A DNA stretch of 54,109 bases from Chiloscyllium plagiosum. Lineage: Eukaryota. Location: assembly GCF_004010195.1 (NCBI RefSeq), contig NC_057718.1, forward strand, positions 93,908,341 to 93,962,449, written 5' to 3'. Positions 3,568 through 43,374 of this stretch are shown piece by piece. The notes under the pieces are model-generated. The model was given only the letters and a program-made list of their open reading frames with translations, was not told the DNA's origin and ran no database searches. The position numbers and the translations under genes were made by a program. The first letter of the stretch is position 1, and each line of letters begins with the position of its first letter.

Positions 3568-3887
3568 NNNNNNNNNNNNNNNNNNNNNNNNNNNNNNNNN
3601 NNNNNNNNNNNNNNNNNNNNNNNNNNNNNNNNNNNNNNNNNNNNNNNNNNNNNNNNNNNNNNNNNNNNNNNNNNNNNNNNNNNNNNNNNNNNNNNNNNNN
3701 NNNNNNNNNNNNNNNNNNNNNNNNNNNNNNNNNNNNNNNNNNNNNNNNNNNNNNNNNNNNNNNNNNNNNNNNNNNNNNNNNNNNNNNNNNNNNNNNNNNN
3801 NNNNNNNNNNNNNNNNNNNNNNNNNNNNNNNNNNNNNNNNNNNNNNNNNNNNNNNNNNNNNNNNNNNNNNNNNNNNNNNNNNNNNNN
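3568..3887. other. Assembly gap (N run)
   Basis: N bases. Confidence 1.
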
Positions 3888-9270: not shown

Positions 9271-9539
9271 GATTGAATGGCCTCCCATTCCTCCTTAATT
9301 CTGAGGTTCACTCGCTTATAGAGCCCTTCAGTGAAGTGATGTATGCATGAGGACCTATGAAATATCTGAGTCCAGCAACCGCTCTTCTCAAGCTCAACAA
9401 TTGATTTTTTAAGGTATGTATTTTCATTCACAGAATGTGGGGTTTACTGGCCACTAATTCCCCATTCCTAATTGGGTTCAATTATTTCCTATTCCTAATT
9501 GAGAGGTCCACTGATAAATGCGATGTTGGTGAGCATGGG

Positions 9540-11770
9540 GAGATCGGGCCCAACACAGAGGAGGTTAATCCCCAATCACGGAAGAGATTGAACCCAGCAC
9601 GGAGGAGATTGAGCCCCAATGCGGAGGAGATTGAGCCCCAGTGCAGAGGAGATTGAGCCCAGCACGGAGGAGATTGAGCCCCAGTGTGGAGGAAATTGAG
9701 CCCAGCACGGAGGAGATTGAACCCCAATGCGGAGGAGATTGAGCCCCAGTGCAGAGGAGATTGAGCCCAGCACGGAGGAGATTGAGCCCCAATGCGGAGG
9801 AGATTGAGCCCCAGTGTGGAGGAAATTGAGCCCAGCACAGAAGAGATTGAGCCCCAGTGCGGAGGAGATTGAGGTTCAATTATTTCCTATTCCTAATTGA
9901 GAGGTCCACTGATAAATGCGATGTTGGTGAGCATGGGGAGATCGGGCCCAACACAGAGGAGGTTAATCCCCAACCACGGAAGAGATTGAACCCAGCACGG
10001 AGGAGATTGAGCCCCAATGCGGAGGAGATTGAGCCTCAGTGCAGAGGAGATTGAGCCCAGCACGGAGGAGATTGAGCCCCAATGCGGAGGAGATTGAGCC
10101 CAGCACAGAGGAGATTGAGCCCCAATGCGGAGGAGATTGAGCCCCAGTGTGGAGGAAATTGAGCCCAGCACAGAGGAGATTGAGCCCCAATGCGGAGGAG
10201 ATTGAGCCAAATGCGGAGGAGATTCAGCCCCAGTGCGGAGGAGATTGAGCCCAGCACAGAGGAGATTGAGCCCAGCACAGAGGAGATTGAGCCCCAATGC
10301 GGAGGAGATTGAGCGCAGCACAGAGGAGATTGAGCCCAATGCAGAGGAGATGGAGTGTAACATGGAAGAAATTGCACTCCAACGTAGAGGAGGTTGAGGC
10401 CCAGTGCGGAGGAAATTGAGCCCAACACGGAGGAGATTGACCGCAATGTGGAGGAGATTGAGCCCCAACACGGAGGAGATAGAACCCAACGCGGAGGAGA
10501 TTGAACCCCAGTGTGGAGAAGAATGAGACCCAACATGGAGGAGATTGAGCCCTAATGCAGAGGAGATTGAGCCCCAGCACAGAGGGGATTGAGTGCAACA
10601 TGGCCCAATGCGGAGGAGATTGAGCCCCAGTGTGGAGGAAATTGAGCCCAGCACAGAGGAGATTGAGCCCCAGTGCGGAGGAGATTGAGCCCAATGCGGA
10701 GGAGATGGAGTGTAACATGTAGGAAATTGCACTCCAACGTAGAGGAGGTTGAGGCCCAGTGCAAAAGAAATTGAGCCCAACACGGAGGAGATTGACCGCA
10801 ATGTGGAGGAGATTGAGCCCCAACACAGAGGAGATAGAACCCAACGCGGAGGAGATTGAACCCCAGTGCAGAGGAGAATGAGACCCAACATGGAGGAGAT
10901 TGAGCCCTAATGCAAAGGAGATTGAGCCCCAGCACAAAGAAGACTGAACCCCAGAGCAGAGGAGATTGAGCCCCAATGCAGAGGAGATTGAGCCCCAGCA
11001 CAGAGGGGATTGAGTGCAACATGAAGGAAATTGCACTCCAACATGGAGGAGGTTGAGGTCCAGTGCGGAGGAAATTGAGCCCAACGCGGAGGAGATTGAG
11101 CCCAACATGGAGGAGAATGAGCCCCAACGTGGAGGAGATTGAGCCCCAATGCAGAGAAGATTGAGTGCAACATGGAGGAAATTGCACTCCAACATGGAGG
11201 AGGTTGAGGCCCAGTGCAGAGGAAATTGAGCCCAATGCGGAGGAGATTGAGCCCCAAAGCGGAGGAGGTTGAGCGCAACATGGAGGAGATTGACCCAACA
11301 CGGAAGAGATTGAACCCCAGTGTGGAAGAATTGAGCCCCAACACGAAGGAGATTGAGTGCAAGGTGGAGGAGATTGAGCCCAATGCGGAGGAGATTGAGC
11401 CCCAGTGCAGAGGAGAATGAGACCCAACGTGGAGGACATTGAACCCCAATGCAGAGGAGATTGGGCCCCAGTGTGGAAGAAATTGGGACCAGCACAGAGG
11501 AGATTGGAACCTAACATGGAGGAGCTTGAACCCAACGTGGGAGAGATTGAATCCAACATGGAGGAGATTGAGCCCAACATGGAGGAGAGTGAGCCCCAAC
11601 GTGGAGGAGATTGAGCCCAACATGGAGGAGAGTGAGCCCCAACGTGGAGGAGATTGAGTCCCAACGTGGAGGAGATTGAGTCCCAGTGCGGAAGAGATTG
11701 AGCCCCAGTGCGGAGGAGATTAAGTCTCAGTGCGGAGGAGATTGAGCCTCATTGCGGAGGAGATTAAGCC
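9540..11770 (+). repeat. Minisatellite, 21-22 bp unit approx. GGAGGAGATTGAGCCC(C)ARYRY, about 100 units
   Basis: Direct tandem periodicity with internal higher-order duplications. Confidence 0.95.
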
Positions 11771-12156
11771 GTTGTGGGGAGTGCAAGCTCAGCATGGTTA
11801 AGCACTGAAGAAGGACAGCAATGTTGAACTTTTAACTGTATTTATTTATTTTAAACTGAGGAGGACATTAATGTTAAACAAAAACAGAAGTTGCTGGAAT
11901 AATGCAGCAGGTCTGGCAACATCTGTGAAGAGAAATCAAAGTTAACCTAGGTACATGACCCTTGACCCATAACCCTTCCTCAGAACTGGACTTGAACAGT
12001 GAACCTTTAACTATATTTCCATATTTTTCTACTTTGCAACCAAGAGTTTGTGCCTTAGTTCCTTTGTACCTAAGGTGGTGTTGGGATTGGCAACATTGTC
12101 CACTTTCACTGCACTCCTGTACCCCTGTACCTGAGTACACGTGACAATAAAATCAA
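11770..12156 (+). mobile_element. 3' part of a non-autonomous retroelement with Rex1-like tail (contains pLTR-like insert about 11875-11990)
   Basis: Ends TTTCACTGCACT...GTACACGTGACAATAAA, matching the tail of the LINE at 13000-13490. Confidence 0.6.
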
Positions 12157-12570
12157 AGTTAAAAATCACACAACACCAGGTTATAGTCCAACAGGTTTAA
12201 TTAGAAGTACTAGCTTTCAGAGTCACTCTCCTTCATCAGGTGATTGTGGAGGACACAATTGTAAGGCACAGAATTTATAGCAAAAGTTTACAGTGTGATG
12301 TAACTGAAATGATACATTTAAAAATACCTCGATTGTTTGTTGAAAGAATCAACAAACAATCGAGGTATTTTTAAATGTATCATTTCAGTTACATCACACT
12401 GTAAACTTTTGCTATAAATTCTGTGCCTTACAATTGTGTCCTCCACAATCACCTGATGAAGGAGCGTCGCTCCAAAAGCTAGTGCTTCCAATTAAACCTG
12501 TCGGACTATAACCTGGTGTTGAATGATTTTTAACTTTGTACACCCCAGTCCAACACCGGCATCTCCAAAT
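12157..12570. mobile_element. Fold-back Penelope pLTR insertion (family A), about 190-bp inverted arms
   Basis: Near-perfect palindrome centred near 12346; TSD CAATAAAATCAA at 12145-12156 and 12571-12582. Confidence 0.9.
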
Positions 12571-14479: not shown

Positions 14480-17400
14480 TTAGGCCTGGTCTTTCTCTCG
14501 TTGTGTTTCCTGCGATGGTTTTGCCCCAGGTCCAGTTCCTCTGGTTCGGACTCTGTCACAGGCAGCGTGTACCAGACCGTGGCCCACTTCTTGTGTCCAG
14601 ACCATCTCAGGAGGCTGCATCCATCTCAGATGCTGAGGCTTCCTCGACACTGAACAGAGGGGGAGAACCCACAGTTTCGGCCGGGCCTTCTGGCTGTTCT
14701 GAGGGGTAAAAAATTGTGGCGCTGGAAAAGCACAGGGCTTATGCATGAAACATCGACTCTCCTGCTCCTCGGTTGCTGCCTGACCTGGCATGCTTTTCCA
14801 GCACCACACTTCTCGACTCTGACTCTCCAGAATCTGTAGTCCTTACTTTCTCCTGTTCTGAGGGGCCAGGCATGTTTTGCTCCTGCCCCATTTGTGAGAT
14901 AACAGCTTTCAGCACGTGTTTATTCAGGACTATATCACCGACCCGAATTTTGTAAGGCACGGGACTGACCTCATGTCAACCTCACCTGATACCCATACAG
15001 GGCCATTTCCATGGTCTGTTACCAAATTTTGTCCCCTGAATTAAATTGTCTGTCTCACTTTGAGGAGCCTTATGGCCAGAATTGATGTTCCTGTTGCCAT
15101 TGTATTGATCCCCCCTCAGGTCGAGGAGTATAGGTTTAACCTGGTGCAGAGTCTTCTCCCCATCATCAACTCTGCTGGAGGTATCCCTGTTATTGCGTGT
15201 GGGCTGTTCCTACAGTCGAACAGGAACCAGGGCAGTTTCATATCAATGGACACTATAGGCTACTTCTTTAAGGCTGCCTTCAATGTTTGGACCACTCTTC
15301 CAGCCAGACCATTGGGTAACAGATAGTATGGAGCTGTCGTTACATGCTGGATGCCATTGGACTTTAGAAAATACTCAAACTCCCTGCTGGTAAATGATGT
15401 CCCATTGTCCGTGACCAATACTTCCAGGAGTCCGTGTATCATGAGCAATGCTCACAGCTTTTCTATCATCATCCCTGAGTTTGCTGAACAAACTTTATGC
15501 ACATCTAACCACTTTGAATGGACATCCTCAATGACTATGAAAGAACCAGCATTGTTGACATGTAACTGAGTCCAGTGTTTACCCGACCATTCCCACAAAT
15601 GTTGGGGTGCTGCTGCTTGTAATTCTTGTCCTTGTTGGCACTCTGGGCACTGCCCCACCAACGCAGCAATGTCGACATCCAACCCTGGCCACCAGACATA
15701 GCTTCTTGCCAGCATCTACATCTTGGAAATGCTTGGGTGACCCTGATGGGGGTCAGTACCTGGTAGTGACCTTCACTCAGGAGGTATCACCCTCACTCCC
15801 CATGGTGATATGCCATCCTCCACAGTCATCTGGTCTCACTGGATCCAGAAATATTTCAATCCTGTTTGTGATGGCCTTTCTGTTTCCCCCATTACCACCA
15901 GCTGTTTTAGTTTCTCTAGGATTGGATCATTTTATGTCCACAGTCGGGTATTGTCCGCTGTGACTAGAAGGGTGTTCAGGACTAGAACAGATTCTTCCAG
16001 GGGAGGCACTGCCATTGGAGTATCGCCAGTGGGAAGTGGCTCAAGGCATCCGCATTAGCCACTTGGCTTCCTGGACCGTCTTCCAACTTGTACTGGCATG
16101 CACTGGGAAGAAGGGCCCAACGCTGAATTCTATCAGAAGCTATGGATGACACCACCTTGTCTTCCTTCATTAGCCCTAGCAGGGGTTTGATATCCATTAC
16201 TATGACAAATTCCCATCTGTAAAGGTATTGGTGGAACTTCCTTACACCAAAGATGACCGCCAAACCTTCCTTCTCTATCTGGGCATATTTGCGTTCAGCA
16301 TCAGCCAAAGTCCAGGAAGCATATGCTATTGGGTGTTCCTCTCTAATGGGTTACTGGTGAGCCAACACTATCCCGATACTCTCTGGGGAGCCATCGCATG
16401 TCAGCACTACCTCTCGCTTCAGATCGCAGTGGGCCAACACTTTAGATGATGATCATTGCTTTTTCACTTCCCTAAAGGCTACTTCTTGGCTACATGACCA
16501 TTTCCAAGGCTGACCCTTTGTCAATAGCCAAGGTGGAGGCCAGATTATGTATGAGTTTTCCATAACAGTACACTAACCCAAGGAAAGACCTGAGCTCCTG
16601 TACAGACGTGGGAGCTGGGGGACCCTTTGATCACCCTCACTTTCTGTTCCAACGGGTATAACCCCGTTTTGTCAACTCTGTAACCAAGTAGGTCACTTGG
16701 GGGCACCTGAAACACACACTTTTCCCTTCTAAGACGTACACCTGCCTAGGAGAAATGTTTAAGCACTTCAAGTGCCCTTTATTGCTCTTCCCTTTTATTA
16801 ACATGTCATCCAGATAAATGGCAACCAGGGGTAGCCCTTATAAAATGTTCTCCATGGTCTGCTGGAAAAAGAGTGCAGGCTAACGATATCCCAAATGGCA
16901 GCCTTGTATATTGATATAAACCCTTATAGTTATTAATTGTAATGTCCTTCTGGGACTCCTCATCTAGTTACAATTGCAGGTAGGTGTGGCTCATGCCCAG
17001 CTTTGTAAAGGACAGCACCCCCCTGCCAACTTTGCGTATAAGTCCTCTATGCAAGGGATCGGGTATTTATCCAGCTGCAAAAAGCAGTTTACCCTTTACC
17101 TAAAATCCCCACAAAGGTGAACCGAGCCACCAGGCATCACAATCAGTATGATCGGTATTGTCCTTTCTGCAAACTGAATTGGGTTTGATGATTCCTCCGC
17201 TCTCCAGTCTCCTGATTTCTGACACCAGACAGGGTGTGCAAAACCTCAGAATCGTTTCCTTGTCAGCTTGTCAAGTGGCTTTGCTAGTCCCAAGCCCTTC
17301 CTGAAATACTCCCAGGTATTTCACTAGGACTTCACTGAGGTAGCCATTTTCCAATCGAAAAATATTGAGCTATTCTACGTGAATCTTTCTCAATGAATTC

Positions 17401-17490
17401 CACCCCAATAGGTTTGGGCCAAGCATCTTACTGCCTCCAGTGGTAACGGCACCAGCTGCTTCTCATTGGAGACCAGAACTGAAGTCATTT
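14480..17490 (-). mobile_element. Decayed Ty3/Gypsy pol (RT-RNaseH-integrase), many stops and frameshifts
   Basis: RT RLPFG...YLDD near 16800-16910; RNaseH ERKYAQIEKEGLAVIFGVRKFHQYL; integrase ARSYVWWPGLD...CPECQ and VTDNGTSFTSREF. Confidence 0.9.
14707..14852 (+). mobile_element. Penelope-derived short insert (family B) inside the Gypsy element
   Basis: 13-bp TSD CTGTTCTGAGGGG at 14694-14706 and 14853-14865. Confidence 0.85.
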
Positions 17491-17575
17491 ACTAGTACAC
17501 AGTATATTGGCTGTGATCAGCCAGCTTGGAGTCCGTCCCCTGAACTGAGGAGATTCTAAATCCACTGTTTATATT

Positions 17576-17725
17576 TTTTTTTTACAGCAGCAGTGGTGGA
17601 GGTCCTGGGAGGGGCCCCAAGGCAAGTCCCAGGCAGCAGCAGTGAGGCAGGCCCCAAGCAGCAATAGCTGAGGCAGGTCCGGGCGGGGTCCCAGAGACCA
17701 ACAGTGGGAGTGGGCCCCAGGTCAG
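17576..17725 (-). mobile_element. GC-rich poly(A)-tailed retro-insert with 19-bp TSD at the LTR TATA box
   Basis: TAAATCCACTGTTTATATT at 17557-17575 and 17726-17744; T-run at left end. Confidence 0.85.
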
Positions 17726-17811
17726 TAAATCCACTGTTTATATTAGTCAGCCAGAACTTTCCTGATTGGCCCAGAACACCACCATTGAAGGATATCATAG
17801 TCAATGAGTTT

Positions 17812-18152
17812 GGGACAGCATGGTGGCTCAGTGGTTAGCACTGCTGCCTCACAACACTAGGGACCTGAGTTCAATTCCCATCTTGGGTGACTGTCTGTGT
17901 GAAGTTTGCATGTTCTCCCCATGTCTGTGTGGATTTCCTCTGGGTGCTCTGGTTTCCTCCCAAGATGTGCAGAATAGGTAAATTGTCCATGCTAAGTTGT
18001 CCATAGTGTTCAGGGATGTGTTGATTAGGTGCATTAGTCTGGAATAAATTTAGAATAGTTGGAGAATGGGTCTGGGTGGGTTACTCTTCGGAGGGCCAGT
18101 GTGTACTTGTTGGGCCAAAGGGCCTGTTGCAACACTGGAGGGATTCTGTGAT
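17812..18152 (+). mobile_element. HE1-type SINE
   Basis: TGGCTCAGTGGTTAGCACTGCTGCCTCAC head; GTTCAATTCC B box. Confidence 0.9.
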
Positions 18153-18477
18153 TTACCTGGTTCCAATCACTGCAAAAGTATTCCAAAAGTGGCCTCACCA
18201 ACTTCTTGAACAACCGCAACTTGATCTCCCCATTCCTAGTCTTTAGGAACATTGTCTAAAATGGTAAGTATGATTAACTCTATGCAATTTTGGAATGGGC
18301 TTCTTCCTTTTTGAAAATAGCTGCAAACAAAAATAGCTTCATGTTAACACATAGTAAAGAGCCTAACGATAGTTTAGGCAAATTTTGACCGAATGTGAAA
18401 ATTAGAATGAAAATAGGAGCGCGCAGAAAATGATGTTGGAATAGCTTAGGTCATTCTCCCTTTATGATATGCAAAGC

Positions 18478-19100
18478 CCATGGATATCGAGTATAAGAAC
18501 GGGCAGGGCATGTTAAAATTGTACAAGACTTTGGTTCGGCCACATTTGGAATACTGCATACAGTTCTGGTCGCCACATTACCAAAAGGATATGGACGCTT
18601 TGGAGAGGGTGCAGAAAAGGATGTTGCCTGGTATGGAAGGTGCTAGCTATGAAGAGAGGTTGAGTAGGTTAGGATTGTTTACATTAAAAAAAAGGAGATT
18701 GAGGAGAGACCTGACTGAGGTCTACAAAATCATGAAGGGAATAGACAGAGTGGATAGAGATAAGCGTTTTCCCAGGGTGAGGGATTCAATAACAAGAGGT
18801 CACGCATTCAAGGTGAGAGGAGAAAGGTTTAAAGGGGGTACACTTGGAAGGAACTTTACACAGAGGGCGGTAGGAGCCTGGAACGTGTTGCCAGCAGGGG
18901 TAGTAGAGGCAGGTACAGTAGATTCATTTAAGGTGCATCTGGACAGATGCATGAGTAGATGGGGAGCAGAGTGATACAGATGCTTTGGAATTGGGCAATA
19001 GATTTAGACAGTGGATTTGGATCAGCACAGGCTTGAAGGGCTGAAGGGCCTGTTGCTGGGCTGTAAATTTTCTTTGTTCTTTGTCCTCTTTGTTCTTTAT
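18478..19100 (+). mobile_element. CR1 LINE 3' fragment
   Basis: LYKTLVRPHLEYCIQFWSPHYQKDMDALERVQ...RRLRRDLTEVYKIM; (TCTTTGT)-like tail. Confidence 0.92.
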
Positions 19101-19249
19101 TTAAAAGAACAGTTTATAAATCCCTAAAGTGTATGAAGTTGAAAGCTGCACGTTCACTCAATGCCTCAGTGAATTGACTCACGCCATGTGCATCATTTAA
19201 TCCAGTCGTCATCTTTGTAAAACAATAGACCTTTGATGAGAATTAACAG

Positions 19250-19555
19250 AAAAGGCAAAGTTGCCATAGTCTTAGCAGACCATATGTCTGCTCTCTCATT
19301 ACAGATCAATGGCTGGTGGTGGTTTAACCTGAGGGTCACCGTGTCTCAGACGAGGGGAGAGGTTGAGAAAGAGAGGCGTTCATGCTAACCTCAGGCAGGG
19401 TGGGAATTGGACCCAGCTCTGATGAAGAGTCATCTTGACTTGAAACATAAGCCTGTTCTCTCTCTGTGGATGCTGCCTGACCCACTGTGATCTCCAAAGT
19501 TTTTTTGTTTCCAATCGGAAATTGGCATTACTGAAACTACCCACCCAGCCAACTT
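19250..19555 (-). mobile_element. tRNA-derived SINE (second family) with nested pLTR-like insert about 19415-19515
   Basis: GGTGGTTTAACCTGAGGGTCACC...GGGAATTG shared with 44545-44700 and 46405-46580. Confidence 0.65.
19416..19452 (+). ncRNA. Minimal hammerhead ribozyme motif (family C)
   Basis: GCU-CUGAUGA-A-GAGUCA-UCU-UGACUU-GAAA-CA-UA-AGC; stem I GCU/AGC. Confidence 0.55.
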
Positions 19556-20059
19556 TTTTAGTGACTTGCTAGTGACACAATAAATTCAGGAGGGGGGATG
19601 TTTCATCGACCTACTCTTCTTTATCTGTTAATCTCTGTGAATGAAAGACGAACACTGCAAACAGTTCCTTCAAAACTTCAGCGTGATTGCATGTACAAAC
19701 ACAGATGTGAATGTGGCCACTAAATGAAAGCCTCCAATCAGGACAGACGCCTCGATGGAAAAACCAAACAATATTAAATTCAGCGAGTCAACAACTGCCA
19801 CACTTCTTCCAAGGACCTCCAAATAGACAGAATGACTTTGTACACTCATTAACATATACAACCTCAGCTGACAGATATAGTTGCTGCTAACTTGTATCCA
19901 AGCTGATCGGAGTGTTTAATGAACCAAGCCACTTTCAGATCAGTTTATGCTTTTAACCACCATCACAAAAGGTCAAACTATGGAGCAGGTTCATTTCTAA
20001 TTAGTAGAAATTCAGAGAATTAATCAGTTGCATCCTCCACTACAAGTGAGCTGAATTGA

Positions 20060-20665
20060 ATTCGATTGGCTTCACTGTCACATGCAGGTACAGATTCTAC
20101 TGTACAAGTTCTTAGGGGGAAAAAAAATTAGAAAATTAAATTTTAAAACATCCAGCATTACAAGTTGTAGGAATAAATTAGAAAAATAGAGAAATATTCA
20201 GAACAGTTCAGAACAACTGTCCTTCCATCCCAGCTCATGATGTGGAGGAGCTGGTATTGGACTGGGGTGTACAAAGTTAAAAAATCACACAACACCAGGT
20301 TACAGTCCAACAGGTTTAATTGGAAGCACTAGCTTTCGAAGCACTGCTCCCACAACCACCTGATGAAGGAGCAGTGCTCCGAATTAAACCTGTTGGACCA
20401 ATACCTGGTGTTGTGTGATTTTTAACCTGATGAAGGAGCAACTCGCTGAAAGCTAGTGCTTCCAAATAAATCTTTGTACAACCCAGTTCACACTGGTACC
20501 TAGCCTCCAGTCTGTATCCAGCCTTGATTCCTGAACATGCTGGGCGTCAGTTTGAGACCAGGAGACCGCTCTGAAATTGCCTGGGAAGTCCACGCTGGGC
20601 TGAAAGACCACCGAAAGACCAACGGACCGAGAGACTGCCATGTGATCCACGAGAGTGGATCATGT
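20060..20665 (-). mobile_element. Non-autonomous element related to 11770-12156, interrupted by a pLTR insert
   Basis: Minus strand GAAGGACAG...TGAACT and CATGTGACAGTGAA tail resemble 11810-12150. Confidence 0.45.
20239..20480. mobile_element. Rearranged fold-back Penelope pLTR insert (family A)
   Basis: Inverted AAAAATCACACAACACCAGG / CCTGGTGTTGTGTGATTTTT; two CTGATGAAGGAGC motifs; approximate TSD CCCAGYTCA. Confidence 0.8.
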
Positions 20666-21039
20666 AAATTCCTTCAAGCATGTTAAATCCCATTGTGGTT
20701 TCAACCCAGAAATTGATGTAAATTTCAGCCTGTGGAAAAGCATTTGCAGAAAATTTGCACATGAAAGTGGGGAAGTGGTTATTTTTTGATCCTTTCTGCT
20801 TCTAGTCAATTACCCATGTTGATTAGTACATTTTAATATTGAGATGGAAGGGAATGAAAAGAATGCATGTTGGTCCTCATTGTTCAGAAATCAGTCAACA
20901 AATCGAAACTGGTTTGGTATGAGGTAAGAATATGACAACAAGAATGACCCTTTGAATCATCAAACTTCTAGCTTATCTAGACCAACAAACTACCACCATC
21001 CAATCAATTTTGAAAAATGATTCCAAAGCAAAAGAGCGC

Positions 21040-21282
21040 CCCTGCTCCCATTCTACCGCTCTGCATTTTCCATGGCTAATCCACAAAGCCAGCACACCCC
21101 TGACATTATAGGCCAGTTTAGCATGGCTAATCCACCTAACCTGCAGATCTTTGAACCATGGGAGGAAACCCACGCAGATACAGGGAGGATGTGCAAACTC
21201 CACATAGACAGTCACATGAGGGTAGAATCAAACCCAGGTCCCTGGCGCTGTAGGGCAACAGTGCAGACCACTGAGCCACCAT
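21040..21282 (-). mobile_element. HE1-type SINE
   Basis: CCACTGAGCCACCA reverse head. Confidence 0.85.
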
Positions 21283-21649
21283 ATCGAGCAGCTCAATGAT
21301 CAGAGGGGCCCAAAGCCCCTGATGGCTCTACTGTAGTTCCAAGGCTATTGAGGAATTGTTGAAAAATGAGGGATTCCTACAGGAGTAATATGGTGAACGT
21401 AGCTATGTAAGGGATTGATGGTTTTTAATTTGCCTGTTGACAACTAGGATGAAATGCTTCATGCAGCGAAAAGCTCCTGTGCTGCCTGGTCAAGGGGGAG
21501 GGCTGCAGCAAACATAGTCTGTAACGTGTGCTGTTGGGACATTCACCAGTTTGTTTATATTTCTCTGAGAAATGCACAGATGTTACTAGTTTCTGTGTGT
21601 GCAAATGGTTTATTTGCAAGAGTTTTTAAATAACTCGCAATCACACAAT

Positions 21650-22510
21650 ACCTGCACCATGCATATTGATGGGCTGGATGGGCTAAGTAGTGATTGGTGC
21701 CAGGGGGATCTCATTGACTATGAGATCTGTAATTGGGGCTGTTAACCTTGCCCAATCAAGGAGCCCTGGCTGACATCTATAAATTGAAGATTGGTCTCGT
21801 TACCTGAAAGACTCTTAGAAGTCTTGTTTCTTGAACTGGTGCCTAAATATAGAAGAGATTTGAAAGGTAGTAGTGTCAGAAATTCCCTGTAACTTCTAAT
21901 AAACTTTGAATCTAACTAATTTGGATCTGATTCTCATTGATTTTTCTGTTGATGGTATTGTATTTAAGTATAATGTGAGAGCTTCTGTCTTTGTATATAT
22001 TAAAATAAATGAGATCTAAGCATATATAAAAAATAAACTGAAGATTGTCTTCCTGGTGGTGGAAATTGAATAAAGATTTGTACACCTTGTGTCTTTCACT
22101 GTGTCTCACACCTGCACACACACAACATGAGTGTGGGGGAATAAATAAGCACTCCACAGTTAGGTGGGTGGTAATTAAAAAAATAATAAACCAGAGTCTT
22201 AAAATAAAAGAAAAAAGATAAACACAAGTGTCAGAGGCTATGTTTCACTCTGAGACTTGGCACTGAGAAAGCATGATCAGTGTCGAGGACTCTCCACATG
22301 TAAAAAAAACAATAACCTGAAGATTTTCTTCCTGGTGGTGGAAATTGAATAACGATTTGTACACCTTGTGTCTCACACCTGCACACAAAAAAATAAACAG
22401 GTGTGTCAGAGTGTCTGTCCACTCTGAAAAGAAAATAAATTGAAGATTTAGAATCTCCTCAGTATAGGGACTGACTCTGTGCTGGCTGGGCCACAGTCAG
22501 TGTATTACTG
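21650..22510 (+). mobile_element. Gypsy-type LTR remnant split at its TATA box by stacked inserts (21793-22435)
   Basis: CCCAATCAAGGAGCCCTGGCTGACATCTATAAATTGAAGATT ... TAAATTGAAGATTTAGAATCTCCTCAG; homologous to 17490-18175. Confidence 0.7.
21793..22435 (+). mobile_element. Stack of A-tailed retro-inserts (non-LTR 3' ends plus transduced LTR-like pieces)
   Basis: 13-bp TAAnnTGAAGATT at 21780, 22034, 22313, 22436; each module ends in an A-run. Confidence 0.7.
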
Positions 22511-23189
22511 CTTGTTTTTTGGGGAAAGCCTGATTCCTGAACTGATTGGTTTACAAAGCCAGTTTTGTTAATTGGTATTCCTTTTTTTATTGAGGACTGA
22601 TTTCTAAACTGCCTGATTTACCCAGTCAATGTGTTTCAGGTGTAATTCAGCCCTCTTTAGGGAACTATTGATTTACTGGCTGTGTACAGTCTGTGAGTTA
22701 CTCTTTTATTTTGAGAAAATGTCTATGCTGATTTTGTCACAGGGCTGAGTCCTTGCACTTTCATTTTCTTTTTTTTCAACATGTTTTCACTTTTTTTGGT
22801 GTTTGGACTGAGCCCTTGTGAGAAAATGTACCTTTCCAGATAAATTGGTCCTGTGTGTAGGCCTGGCCCTTTGTTGGTGAATTAGGGCTCTGTAAAGACT
22901 GAACACTAGTATGTGCTGGGAGGTGAGCATTTGCTGCATCCTGACCTTTGGGAGTGGACCAAACCCCTGTGAGTTAACTGCACTTTTTACAATGTACTGT
23001 GTTCCTGAGAGTGGACCTGGTTCTCTTTTGGATGGGCCAGGTCTCTATGGAGGCTGAACATCTGTGTGTGTGCTGTGGGGTGTGTATTTGCTGCCTTTGG
23101 GCATGGACTCTGCCTTGGTACTGGAAACTCTATTAGGATTTTGTTAAAATATGTGGATTTTGTAATTAATAGTGTTTGAATGCAGGCCA

Positions 23190-24165
23190 GAGTGGGCTAG
23201 TCAATATGTGGGGTGGCCGGGAGCTGGAGGGTCAAAGACTGGCCTGGGGGAAAGTGGGCTGGGCTGGGTTGGGGTGGGGGTGTCTGTTAGTATACAGGAT
23301 GGCTGGGGGCTAGGCAGCTGACAGCATGCCTGTAGGAAAGCTGGTTGGGGGGGAGACAGTCAGTACGTGGGCTGGCTGAGGGCTGGAAGGTTGATGACCG
23401 GCCTGGAGGAAAGTGGGCTGGGAGGAGCCTGTCAGTATGTGGAGTGGGAGGACCCAGGCAACTGAACGTCCCTGCAGGAAAGCTGGTATGGGCTAGGCCG
23501 GTCTGTACGCAGGGAGGCTAAGCCAAGTGGCTGATGGCAGCCCAGAGGAAGGCTGACTGGGGGAGGACCGGTCAGTATGCAGGGAGGCTGTGAGCTGGAC
23601 AGCCAATGGCCAGTCTGTAGGAACACTGGCCAGGAGAAAGGGTGAGTCAGTGGGACAGCCAGGTGCTGGAAGGCCGACAGCCCGACTGTAGGAAAGCAGG
23701 TTGGGGATGGTTTGGTGAGTACACGGAGTGACCGGGAGCCGGTGGCTGACGTCCGTCCCAGCGGAAAGTGGGCTGGGGAGGGTCAGTCAATAGGCGAACA
23801 TGAGGACTGCAGATGCTGGAGATTAGATTCGAGGGTGTGGTGCAGGAATGAAGGGCTTTTGCCTGAAATGTCAATTTTCCTGCTCCTCGAATGCTACCTG
23901 ACCTGTGTTTTTCCAGCATTACACTAGGGTCAGTCAATACGCAGGCTGCCAAAGACTGGAAGGCCAACAACCAGCTTGTTGGCAAGTGGTCTGGGGTAGT
24001 CCAGTCAGTATGCCAGGCTACTGGGGGCTGGCTGGTCGATGCCCAGCCTGAAGGAAAACAGGCCTCGAGAGGGTCAGTCAGTGCGCGGGGTGGCCAGAGA
24101 CAGGAAGGCTGACGACTGTCCTGTAGGAAGGCTAGCCAAGGACGGTCTGATCAGTATGTGGTGTG
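23190..24165 (+). repeat. Degenerate ~71-bp G-rich tandem array (about 12 units)
   Basis: GTCAGTA-like anchors at about 23200, 23286, 23359, 23431, 23501, 23571, 23642, 23715, 23786/23933, 24004, 24077, 24150. Confidence 0.8.
23793..23925. mobile_element. Penelope-derived short insert (family B)
   Basis: 14-bp TSD AGGGTCAGTCAATA at 23779-23792 and 23926-23939. Confidence 0.85.
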
Positions 24166-24459
24166 GACAGTGTCAGGTGTCTTTTTTTATATACAGCTAC
24201 ATTGGGTCTGTGTTCTATACACTGTTTCTGATTTGATTGCACTGTCTTGTCTGTGTTTGTTACTGTTATCTTTTGTGATGAACAGAAGTGGGATTTGAGG
24301 TTTGTCCTCCTCTCCCTGAAAACTGGTTGAACGGTGGGGTTTGTGGTTTGGCTTTGCTACCCTTTTCCCCTGTATATAGTGGGACTTTCTTTTTGTCAAC
24401 TGCTGTTTTCTGTTTATTGTCAATGTGTTTTGCACTATTTAATAAAATATTTTTAAAAA

Positions 24460-24590
24460 TGGAGATTCAGAAGGTCCCCTTAGTCTAGGGACTGGCTGGG
24501 AGCTAGCTGTTCAAAGCCCATGTACTCTACACATATAAATAAAGACAGACTTGGTGATGGGATACTGGCTGCTGTATAGCTTTTTTTTCA
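24460..24590 (+). mobile_element. Post-TATA half of a Gypsy-type LTR (AATAAA, ends ...TTTCA)
   Basis: GGAGATTCAGAAGGTCCCCTTAGTCTAGGGACTGG aligns with GAAGATTTAGAATCTCCTCAGTATAGGGACTGA at 22442. Confidence 0.6.
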
Positions 24591-26044
24591 GCCTGCTCCC
24601 ACACTGTAGGGATTCTATGAAATGTAGTAGCAGCTAATGAGGACCAACCATATACAGGTATATTAGTTGGATGGACAGGAAAAAGTTGCTGAGTTTAACT
24701 CTGACAATATCCATTTAATCCCCAAAATCCAAATCACTCCTGTCTATTACAGTCTTCAAGTTCTGGTGCAATTGTCCAAATTCAAATGGCTTGGACATTT
24801 ATAAAGCTTCTGTACTACTTGTGGCTGCTTTAAGCTACTATATGCAAATCTGAAATCACAGTATGCTAAAGCCTTTTGGTTTGTATTATTTCATTGGCTA
24901 TGCTCATAGCTCTTTCAAATGCCCATCTGGACGCTTAGCATTCTATTCCAGAAATTTTTGGTGAGGGATGATATTGGAGACAGTTTTACATCTATTTTCA
25001 GGATAAAATAATAAAAACAGACTTCCTATCTGAACCACACTCTTTTTGTCTGTTTGCATGTGCTCCGGTGAATCCCTAATAATTACCCACCACCTACATA
25101 GAATTTAAACCCAATCAGCGCACAATTCGTGCTTCAGTTCTATTTATGCCAGTATTGTCAAGCTGAGCAATTATGACATTCTGGGTCTGCCCTCTGGTGA
25201 CAAAAGATTTCCTTACTTTTCAAACTGTCTGATAAGAATCAATCTCAAAGTTGAGTCAATCTCCGCTATCCAAGATTGTGAAACAGTGGAGCTAGGCCTT
25301 CGTGTGGCTTTCGAAATCTCTCGCTGAGCAGCTGGATTCAGAAAACATGGCAATCAAGCCACTTGTTCATTGCTTGCCGGGAGTGAAATTGGACAATAGT
25401 ACAGATGCTCACTACTCAGGTAGCTTTTTGCCTGATGTGATTTCAATGCGGTACATACAAGGAAACCCAAATTTAGCCTTCAGACAAGATCTGTGCTTTT
25501 CACTACAGAAAGGGGTGGGGGTTTAATACCTACTTCTAAAGATAGAAAATACATTAACTTTTAATCCCCTCAAGGTCTAGGATGGAGAACCATTGTAGAA
25601 GACTCAGGAGAGCACAGATTGGGAACAAAACCTGATGGAACCTGTTCCAAAGAAAACACATCAGGAATTCCCACTATCAAAAGATGGGAGTTCAATCCCC
25701 CACCATTGAACCGGACACAATGCTAAAGTTGACGCCTGAGCCATGCTATATTGTTACATCCTTGCTCTTATATGTTACGGCTTTATAGAGCACACAGGCT
25801 TGTATGTGCATTTTTAACCACTTTCTCAGCTTGACCTTGTCTTTGACTGATTTGTGTTCACTTACTCCCAGACCTTTCTGTTCCTATGCCCACTGAGGAA
25901 TCGAACCCTCCATTTTGTTTCACCTCCTTTCATTCTTCCAACCAAACTGTATCACCTCACATATTCACTGCAGTAAATTTCATTTGCTTATGTTTGTTAC
26001 CATTTCACCAGCTAGTCTGTGTTCTCTTCAAGTCTTTTGTTCCC

Positions 26045-42940: not shown

Positions 42941-43147
42941 TTGTATGATTCGGACAGATGAATCAGACAGGAACAACTGCTTGCAGAATTATTTTGCTCC
43001 AGAGCGTTGTGACCTACAGCCCTCGATTAGCGCAGGCCCCAGATGTGAGGCCTACATTTACGAGAACCACAAAGGCTTTCATTCCCTAAACATGCTGTGC
43101 CTTTGTAATAGAGGTATAGCTTCCTGCATGTGACATCAGGATATCAT

Positions 43148-43374
43148 AGCTGAAAAATGTGTTGCTGGAAAAGTGCAGCAGGTCAGGCAGCATCCAAGGA
43201 GCAGGAAAATCGACGTTTCGGGCATAAGCCCTTCTTCAGGAATCATTCCTGAAGAAGGGCTTATGCCCAAAACGTCGATTCTCCTGCTCCTTGGATGCTG
43301 CCTGACCTGCTGTGCTTTTCCAGCAACACATTTTTCAGCTCTGACCTCCAGCATCTGCAGTCCTCACTTTCTCC
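43148..43374. mobile_element. Young fold-back Penelope-derived insert (family B)
   Basis: About 95-bp near-perfect inverted arms; perfect 15-bp TSD ACATCAGGATATCAT at 43133-43147 and 43375-43389. Confidence 0.92.
43209..43242 (-). ncRNA. Minimal hammerhead ribozyme motif (family B), intact core
   Basis: Minus strand CUGAAGA-A-GGGC-UUAU-GCCC-GAAA-CG-UC; GUC cleavage triplet. Confidence 0.7.

Follow-up and report, generated by a model that had tools for sequence, protein, structure and literature searches.

Three A-tailed inserts at the TATA-like box of a Gypsy-type LTR are probably the product of successive insertions by a putative target-preferring LINE enzyme of the L1/Tx1 type. The locus lies in a stretch of 54,109 nt, the whole of which was analysed and is called the window here. 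A word search of the window shows three A-tailed modules framed by four 13-nt words (T1 to T4), all on the + strand (Table 1); the start of T4 lies 656 bases from that of T1, and the A-rich runs closing modules 1, 2, and 3 occupy 22024-22033, 22302-22312, and 22427-22435, respectively. The initial annotation had placed the four words at these positions. Their clustering exceeds chance: three further matches to the word fall inside the 656 bases, a number reached by none of 3000 first-order resamples (two matches were reached by 2). Counted over the whole window at up to two mismatches, the word has six matches against 3.08 expected, which is not beyond chance (11 of 100 shuffles reach six). 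A TGAAG variant is common to all four words and absent from LTR copies B and C and from the module tails; T2 and T3, unlike T1 and T4, have C at position 5. The inserts have the 3' A-rich tail, the short target duplication, and the 5' truncation of non-LTR insertion by TPRT.

Table 1 Features of the stacked inserts, of the LTR copies, and of the decayed element in the window. Positions are those of the window.
Feature	Position	Strand	Basis
Decayed (broken) Gypsy-order pol, below LTR copy B	14985..17450	-	Pfam
Integrase core	15263-15451	-	Pfam
Integrase zinc finger	15455-15715	-	Pfam
RNase H	15982-16350	-	Pfam
LTR copy B, above decayed Gypsy-order pol	17490..17808	-	alignment, repeat scan
LTR copy A, 5' half; CCAAT 21752-21756, TATAAA 21778-21783	21686..21792	+	74% to copy B; depth jump
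Target word T1, 13 nt	21780..21792	+	word search
Module 1, 5'-truncated copy of a low-copy transcript; AATAAA 22004-22009; decayed A-tail 22024-22033	21793..22033	+	mapped reads/contigs
Target word T2, one mismatch	22034..22046	+	word search
Module 2a, 3' end of an element that is very abundant, transcribed, and A-tailed; A-run at 22177-22186	22047..22186	+	mapped reads/contigs
13-nt word starting TAAAC and second A-rich run	22187..22218	+	repeat scan, alignment
Module 2b, sister-subfamily LTR from TATA to the position of the LTR AATAAA, then A-run	22219..22312	+	alignment, mapped contigs
Target word T3, two mismatches	22313..22325	+	word search
Module 3a, shorter 3' end of same element as 2a; 12-nt gap; A-run 22387-22393	22326..22393	+	alignment
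Module 3b, 33 nt of sister-subfamily LTR from below TATA, then A-rich run	22394..22435	+	alignment, mapped contigs
Target word T4, identical to T1	22436..22448	+	word search
LTR resuming below target; stops ~10 nt before LTR AATAAA, then segment X	22449..22510	+	alignment, mapped contigs
LTR copy C, 3' half from TATA position to TTCA end	24454..24590	+	alignment, 72% to copy A downstream part

That an LTR is interrupted here and resumes about 656 bp further on, as had been proposed, is borne out by both flanks, which match LTR paralogs, and by other copies that join the flanks without an insert: contigs of sets X1 and X10 connect 21775 to 22444 and 22445. When reads and contigs were mapped to the locus, X1 depth rose from 9 to 9,000-84,000 at 21683-21805. 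Copy A is identical to copy B at 74% of positions above the site and 78% below it, and its 5' half is a candidate promoter by the motifs CCAAT and TATAAA. The features listed for the RNA reads, from a 3'-biased library, include no pile-up of transcription starts. The Pfam scan of the pol region below copy B matched 3 of 13 frames; RT had no match in the short frames of this region, and gag was not seen. The order of RNase H before integrase on the LTR strand points to a host repeat of the Ty3/Gypsy, or conceivably the BEL/Pao, type. Copy C closes with TTCA and copy A opens with AG-TAGTG; flanking 5-mers agree at 3 of 5 positions by eye; no partner LTR for copy B was found in the window. In the decayed element (14500-17500, minus strand) the LTR runs directly into pol, and a SINE-like insert lies at ~14730-14857. 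Copy C is preceded by an AATAAA (24441) and by the A-rich run of the preceding segment, segment X. A single long duplication as the source of both the downstream part of copy A and copy C was rejected; the two are 72% alike, below the 78% between A and B.

Modules 2 and 3 begin with the 3' end of one very abundant element, with a summed depth of ~1e6 in X1, where the unique flank has 9. The element is transcribed from the strand of the module, by 718 against 13 in a raw RNA run (X21) from a 3'-biased library whose strand was calibrated via A-runs in loose ends. In 114 X1 contigs and 500 RNA reads it extends further upstream, beyond 22048; its coding part was not found in the window, and no recognisable ORF2 remnant was present among 33 frames of 45 or more residues at 21793-24460, read by eye. 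Folding of five sequences gave small hairpins in tails 2b and 3b (z -2.4 and -3.2) and none in the element end (z 0.7). Alignment of the shared stretch (75 and 63 nt; 60 identities, 3 mismatches of which two are boundary columns, one 12-nt gap) confirms that the two modules start at the same base; this stretch, which had been described as their common end, is their start, and in each module it is followed by an A-run, LTR-derived sequence, and the next 13-mer.

Behind their A-runs both modules go on with TAAACA. In module 2, the 13-nt word that opens with TAAAC resembles the following word at 9 of 13 positions by eye, and with some likelihood may be a target duplication inherited from a donor locus. 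Module 2b aligns collinearly with copy C as far as the AATAAA (61 identities, 27 mismatches; 0 of 2000 shuffles), and its match to the downstream halves of copies A and B is not above chance (967 and 1111 of 2000 shuffles). In one contig 21775 is joined to 22219, and three X9 contigs continue past 22308 with sequence resembling the end of copy C. Position 21775 in the LTR 5' half is an exit point for contigs in all three sets (206 in X1, 178 in X10, 11 in X9), and the majority sequence beyond it resembles the start of modules 2b and 3b (agreement 0.53-0.64, compared by eye). The element end is joined to LTR-downstream sequence in at least five X1 joints (22109, 22125, 22152, and 22153 twice), with one contig each. 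For mapped contigs, the listings comprised 15 of 122 joints, 12 of 62 rows with letters, and 24 of 1053 loose ends; joints link only places inside the mapped stretch, so that their share is biased, and most have fewer than 30 letters on the short side. Modules 2 and 3 thus carry LTR sequence from below the TATA of other copies; modules 2b and 3b are likely 3' transductions, from donors that sat at the same TATA site in other LTRs.

Module 1 is of another kind. Its summed depth (36-75 in X1, where the unique flank has 9; 13-21 in X10) is near that of the flank and not at repeat level; two X10 contigs follow it to 22023, 14 nt below its AATAAA, and then diverge, and one X9 contig starts at 21793, the first base past T1. 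The RNA reads on it (depth 10-15) are of a single strand, sense, and at six listed places differ from it in all 10-13 reads, with the letters of the other copies; the divergence is ~3-4%. By its low depth, the exit at 22023, and one-strand RNA with fixed differences, in one RNA run and three contig sets, module 1 is a 5'-truncated copy of a low-copy expressed transcript. It has the features of a processed pseudogene: a low-copy expressed parent, identity up to a cleavage site below AATAAA, an A-tail, and a target duplication. Its 32-residue frame, a short and weak query that is possibly all untranslated, had no match in PDB, Pfam, the ESM Atlas, or 1.84 billion representatives, and no splice joint was seen in module 1 among the joints listed; it may be a low-copy retroelement instead of a host transcript. 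A contig of organism B runs at ~95% from the unique flank through the LTR and 40 bases into module 1, and the insertion of module 1 therefore predates the split of organisms A and B.

The same word is also filled in copy B. There the whole TATAAA lies within an exact 19-nt direct repeat, whose two copies (17744-17726 and 17575-17557) enclose a GC-rich, A-tailed insert of 150 nt (17576-17725, minus strand) unrelated to modules 1-3; this insert is without AATAAA, contains a 25-nt internal repeat, and has no second copy in the window. Both strands of the 54,109 bases were scanned, by criteria set after the sites had been seen, for exact repeats of 13-25 nt that are spaced 60-1000 apart and whose second copy follows an A-run; two such structures were found, both at the LTR word (copies A and B). 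Both LTR copies with two halves in the window are filled at the TATA (2/2), the 3' half of the third also lies behind an A-run, and in 3/3 copies the insert has the orientation of LTR sense. Another filled LTR is represented by one X1 contig that joins 21774 to 22092 with a target-like word between, the same element being truncated at 22092. Four differing cargoes were found at the site: module 1, the element ends, the copy B insert, and segment X. Segment X (22511-24455) is ~1.9 kb of non-coding sequence with GC-rich units of ~72 nt (23199-24166) and a SINE-like piece (23789-23925); its 5' part is repeated, and its end, an AATAAA followed by an A-run, falls on the TATA position of copy C. Other contigs link LTR-downstream sequence (to 22490-22517) with segment X at several points; segment X may be an LTR-headed family, or may mark a second target ~75 nt below the TATA.

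What had been put forward, namely that poly(A)-tailed insertion with duplication recurs at one LTR site and regenerates its target, thus stands on the two filled copies of two, the donor-LTR tails, and the further filled joint; the part that made all modules the ends of a single non-LTR element is not supported, as module 1 is low-copy and the insert at 17.6 kb in copy B is unrelated to the modules. In the mechanism that we propose, a bottom-strand nick by the endonuclease at TA|TAAA (in copy B, 1-2 nt higher up) would be followed by reverse transcription primed on the A-rich end of the RNA, and a second cut ~13-17 nt on would duplicate the word, so that each event would leave two new targets. 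The RNA would not need to be that of the LINE, module 1 being a low-copy expressed transcript cut ~14 nt below AATAAA; donors at the same site in other LTRs would be read through into LTR sequence and carry it along (2b, 3b). Module 1 would have come before the split of organisms A and B and module 2 last, because T2 and T3 share the C that T1 and T4 lack. The upstream LTR half keeps CCAAT and TATAAA, which would leave the insert just under an intact candidate promoter and the downstream half displaced, and the insert could be transcribed from the promoter motifs of the left half. As these motifs are intact in the left copy, the anatomy of the insert would fit borrowing of the promoter better than its destruction. 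A bolder reading, in which a vertebrate LINE enzyme strict in its target and loose in its choice of RNA places host transcripts, besides its own RNA, in the TATA box of one LTR family and just below an intact promoter, is offered tentatively, with the balance still tilted against it, since it rests on a single module.

The open, A/T-rich LTR TATA could instead be hit by ordinary L1-type machinery that only loosely prefers TT|AAAA-like sites, each tail and word easing the next hit. The target is indeed A/T-rich like a generic L1 target, four unlike cargoes share it, and poly(A) host RNAs are known to be mobilised by L1 (PMC4176376). The element end also exceeds the LTR bin in summed depth 11-fold (X1), 12-fold (X10), and 18-fold (X9), so that many element copies may be located at other places, though depth is no copy number and copy A has diverged from most LTR copies. 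Behind 22133 the loose ends form a mixture (agreement 0.58-0.59) in which no LTR word is clear. Such a hot spot is nevertheless unlikely: both structures in the window are at the LTR word and none at other A/T sites, both element ends bear tails that derive from this site in other LTR copies, and what each repeat duplicates is the LTR word, not part of an A-tail.

Other readings reduce the number of insertions. Local tandem duplication with deletion, by which module 3 would come from module 2 or the reverse after only two insertions, had been raised by the initial annotation, and accords with the common first base, the 1/61 inner mismatches, and the C at position 5 of T2 and T3. The tails, however, differ at 7/34 positions against 1/61 in the element parts (Fisher p 0.003; 0.03 if the boundary columns are kept), a contrast that favours two donors. 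Duplication would also require two further deletions, and short forms of the element that end near the same A-run exist elsewhere (joints 22109 and 22125 to 22387-8, and 75 RNA reads with an A-run behind 22124). The element reads CCTT just above the break, and the resulting T microhomology to the end of the target could determine where truncation falls. Local duplication is given little chance. Smaller still is the chance that the whole stack came from another filled LTR as a single read-through RNA, so that only T1 and T4 would be a duplication made here. It would suit the identity of T1 and T4, whereas T2 and T3 share another variant; yet TGAAG in all four words, and not in B, C, or the tails, indicates one local LTR copy, module 1 is low-copy and its X10 copies exit at 22023 and not into module 2, and the donor would still need targeting.

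The other repeats of the window resemble those of a cartilaginous fish. Elsewhere in the window, abundant repeats form near-perfect head-to-head inverted pairs at 12154-12538 and 43139-43349 (190 nt at 95% and 105 nt at 93%, arms 5 and 1 nt apart, respectively); a further inverted pair of 285 nt (99%) surrounds an N gap at 3568-3887 and is possibly an assembly artefact; a long minisatellite of 21/22 bases with higher-order repeats occupies 9475-11800. Rfam gave nothing at 17300-24800 at E up to 1. Pattern scans gave three chance matches of 21-22 nt in viral contigs and none in metagenome and prokaryote contigs.

Stacking, LTR preference, and trans-mobilisation are already published for crocodilian Tx1 families (PMC4494074), and the surprise is limited accordingly. 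Tx1-8_Crp and Tx1-4_AMi prefer LTR retrotransposons [Kojima 2015, PMC4494074], as is proposed here, in another lineage, for an element of putative L1/Tx1 type; the main text of that paper names no TATA site (0 occurrences), and its supplementary figures S3-S4 may show it. SINEU-3 in Mariner-N4_AMi shows tandem, sequential insertions sandwiching a 16-nt TSD, and poly(A)-tailed SINEU is moved in trans by Tx1-Mar to the target of the LINE (PMC4494074). The present stack is similar in its probable sequential insertion around a TSD and its poly(A)-tailed cargo, presumably moved in trans, but there the target is a DNA transposon, and in place of a low-copy transcript the cargo is a repeat family derived from an snRNA. 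In Xenopus, Tx1L inserts in Tx1D [as cited in PMC4494074], likewise transposon-in-transposon targeting; its target is a piggyBac-type DNA transposon, here it is an LTR. 3' transduction is reported for the site-specific R7Ag and R1Bm (PMC7265360), and the choice of RNA by L1 is relaxed and based on poly(A) (PMC4176376, PMC3747384). Processed pseudogenes and 3' transductions of mammalian L1 are comparable in poly(A)-dependent copying of host RNA, read-through tails, and short TSD (PMC4176376, PMC3747384, PMC7265360); mammalian L1 is without a fixed target, whereas here the cargo lies at one recurrent word. Neither mRNA retrocopies at a Tx1 target nor a shark case was found in the literature searched, most subscription papers and Repbase entries being outside its scope.

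The list of LINEs that target other transposons is short, and the locus is a clear addition to it; with donor sites recorded inside the stack, a single locus is enough to read the targeting. Were module 1 a host transcript placed by the same enzyme, a fixed landing site would be coupled with free choice of RNA, which, if true, would bear on promoter gain by retrogenes and on site-specific, RNA-templated gene insertion. Should the bolder reading hold, LTRs would be collecting points for retrocopies, with a ready-made promoter.
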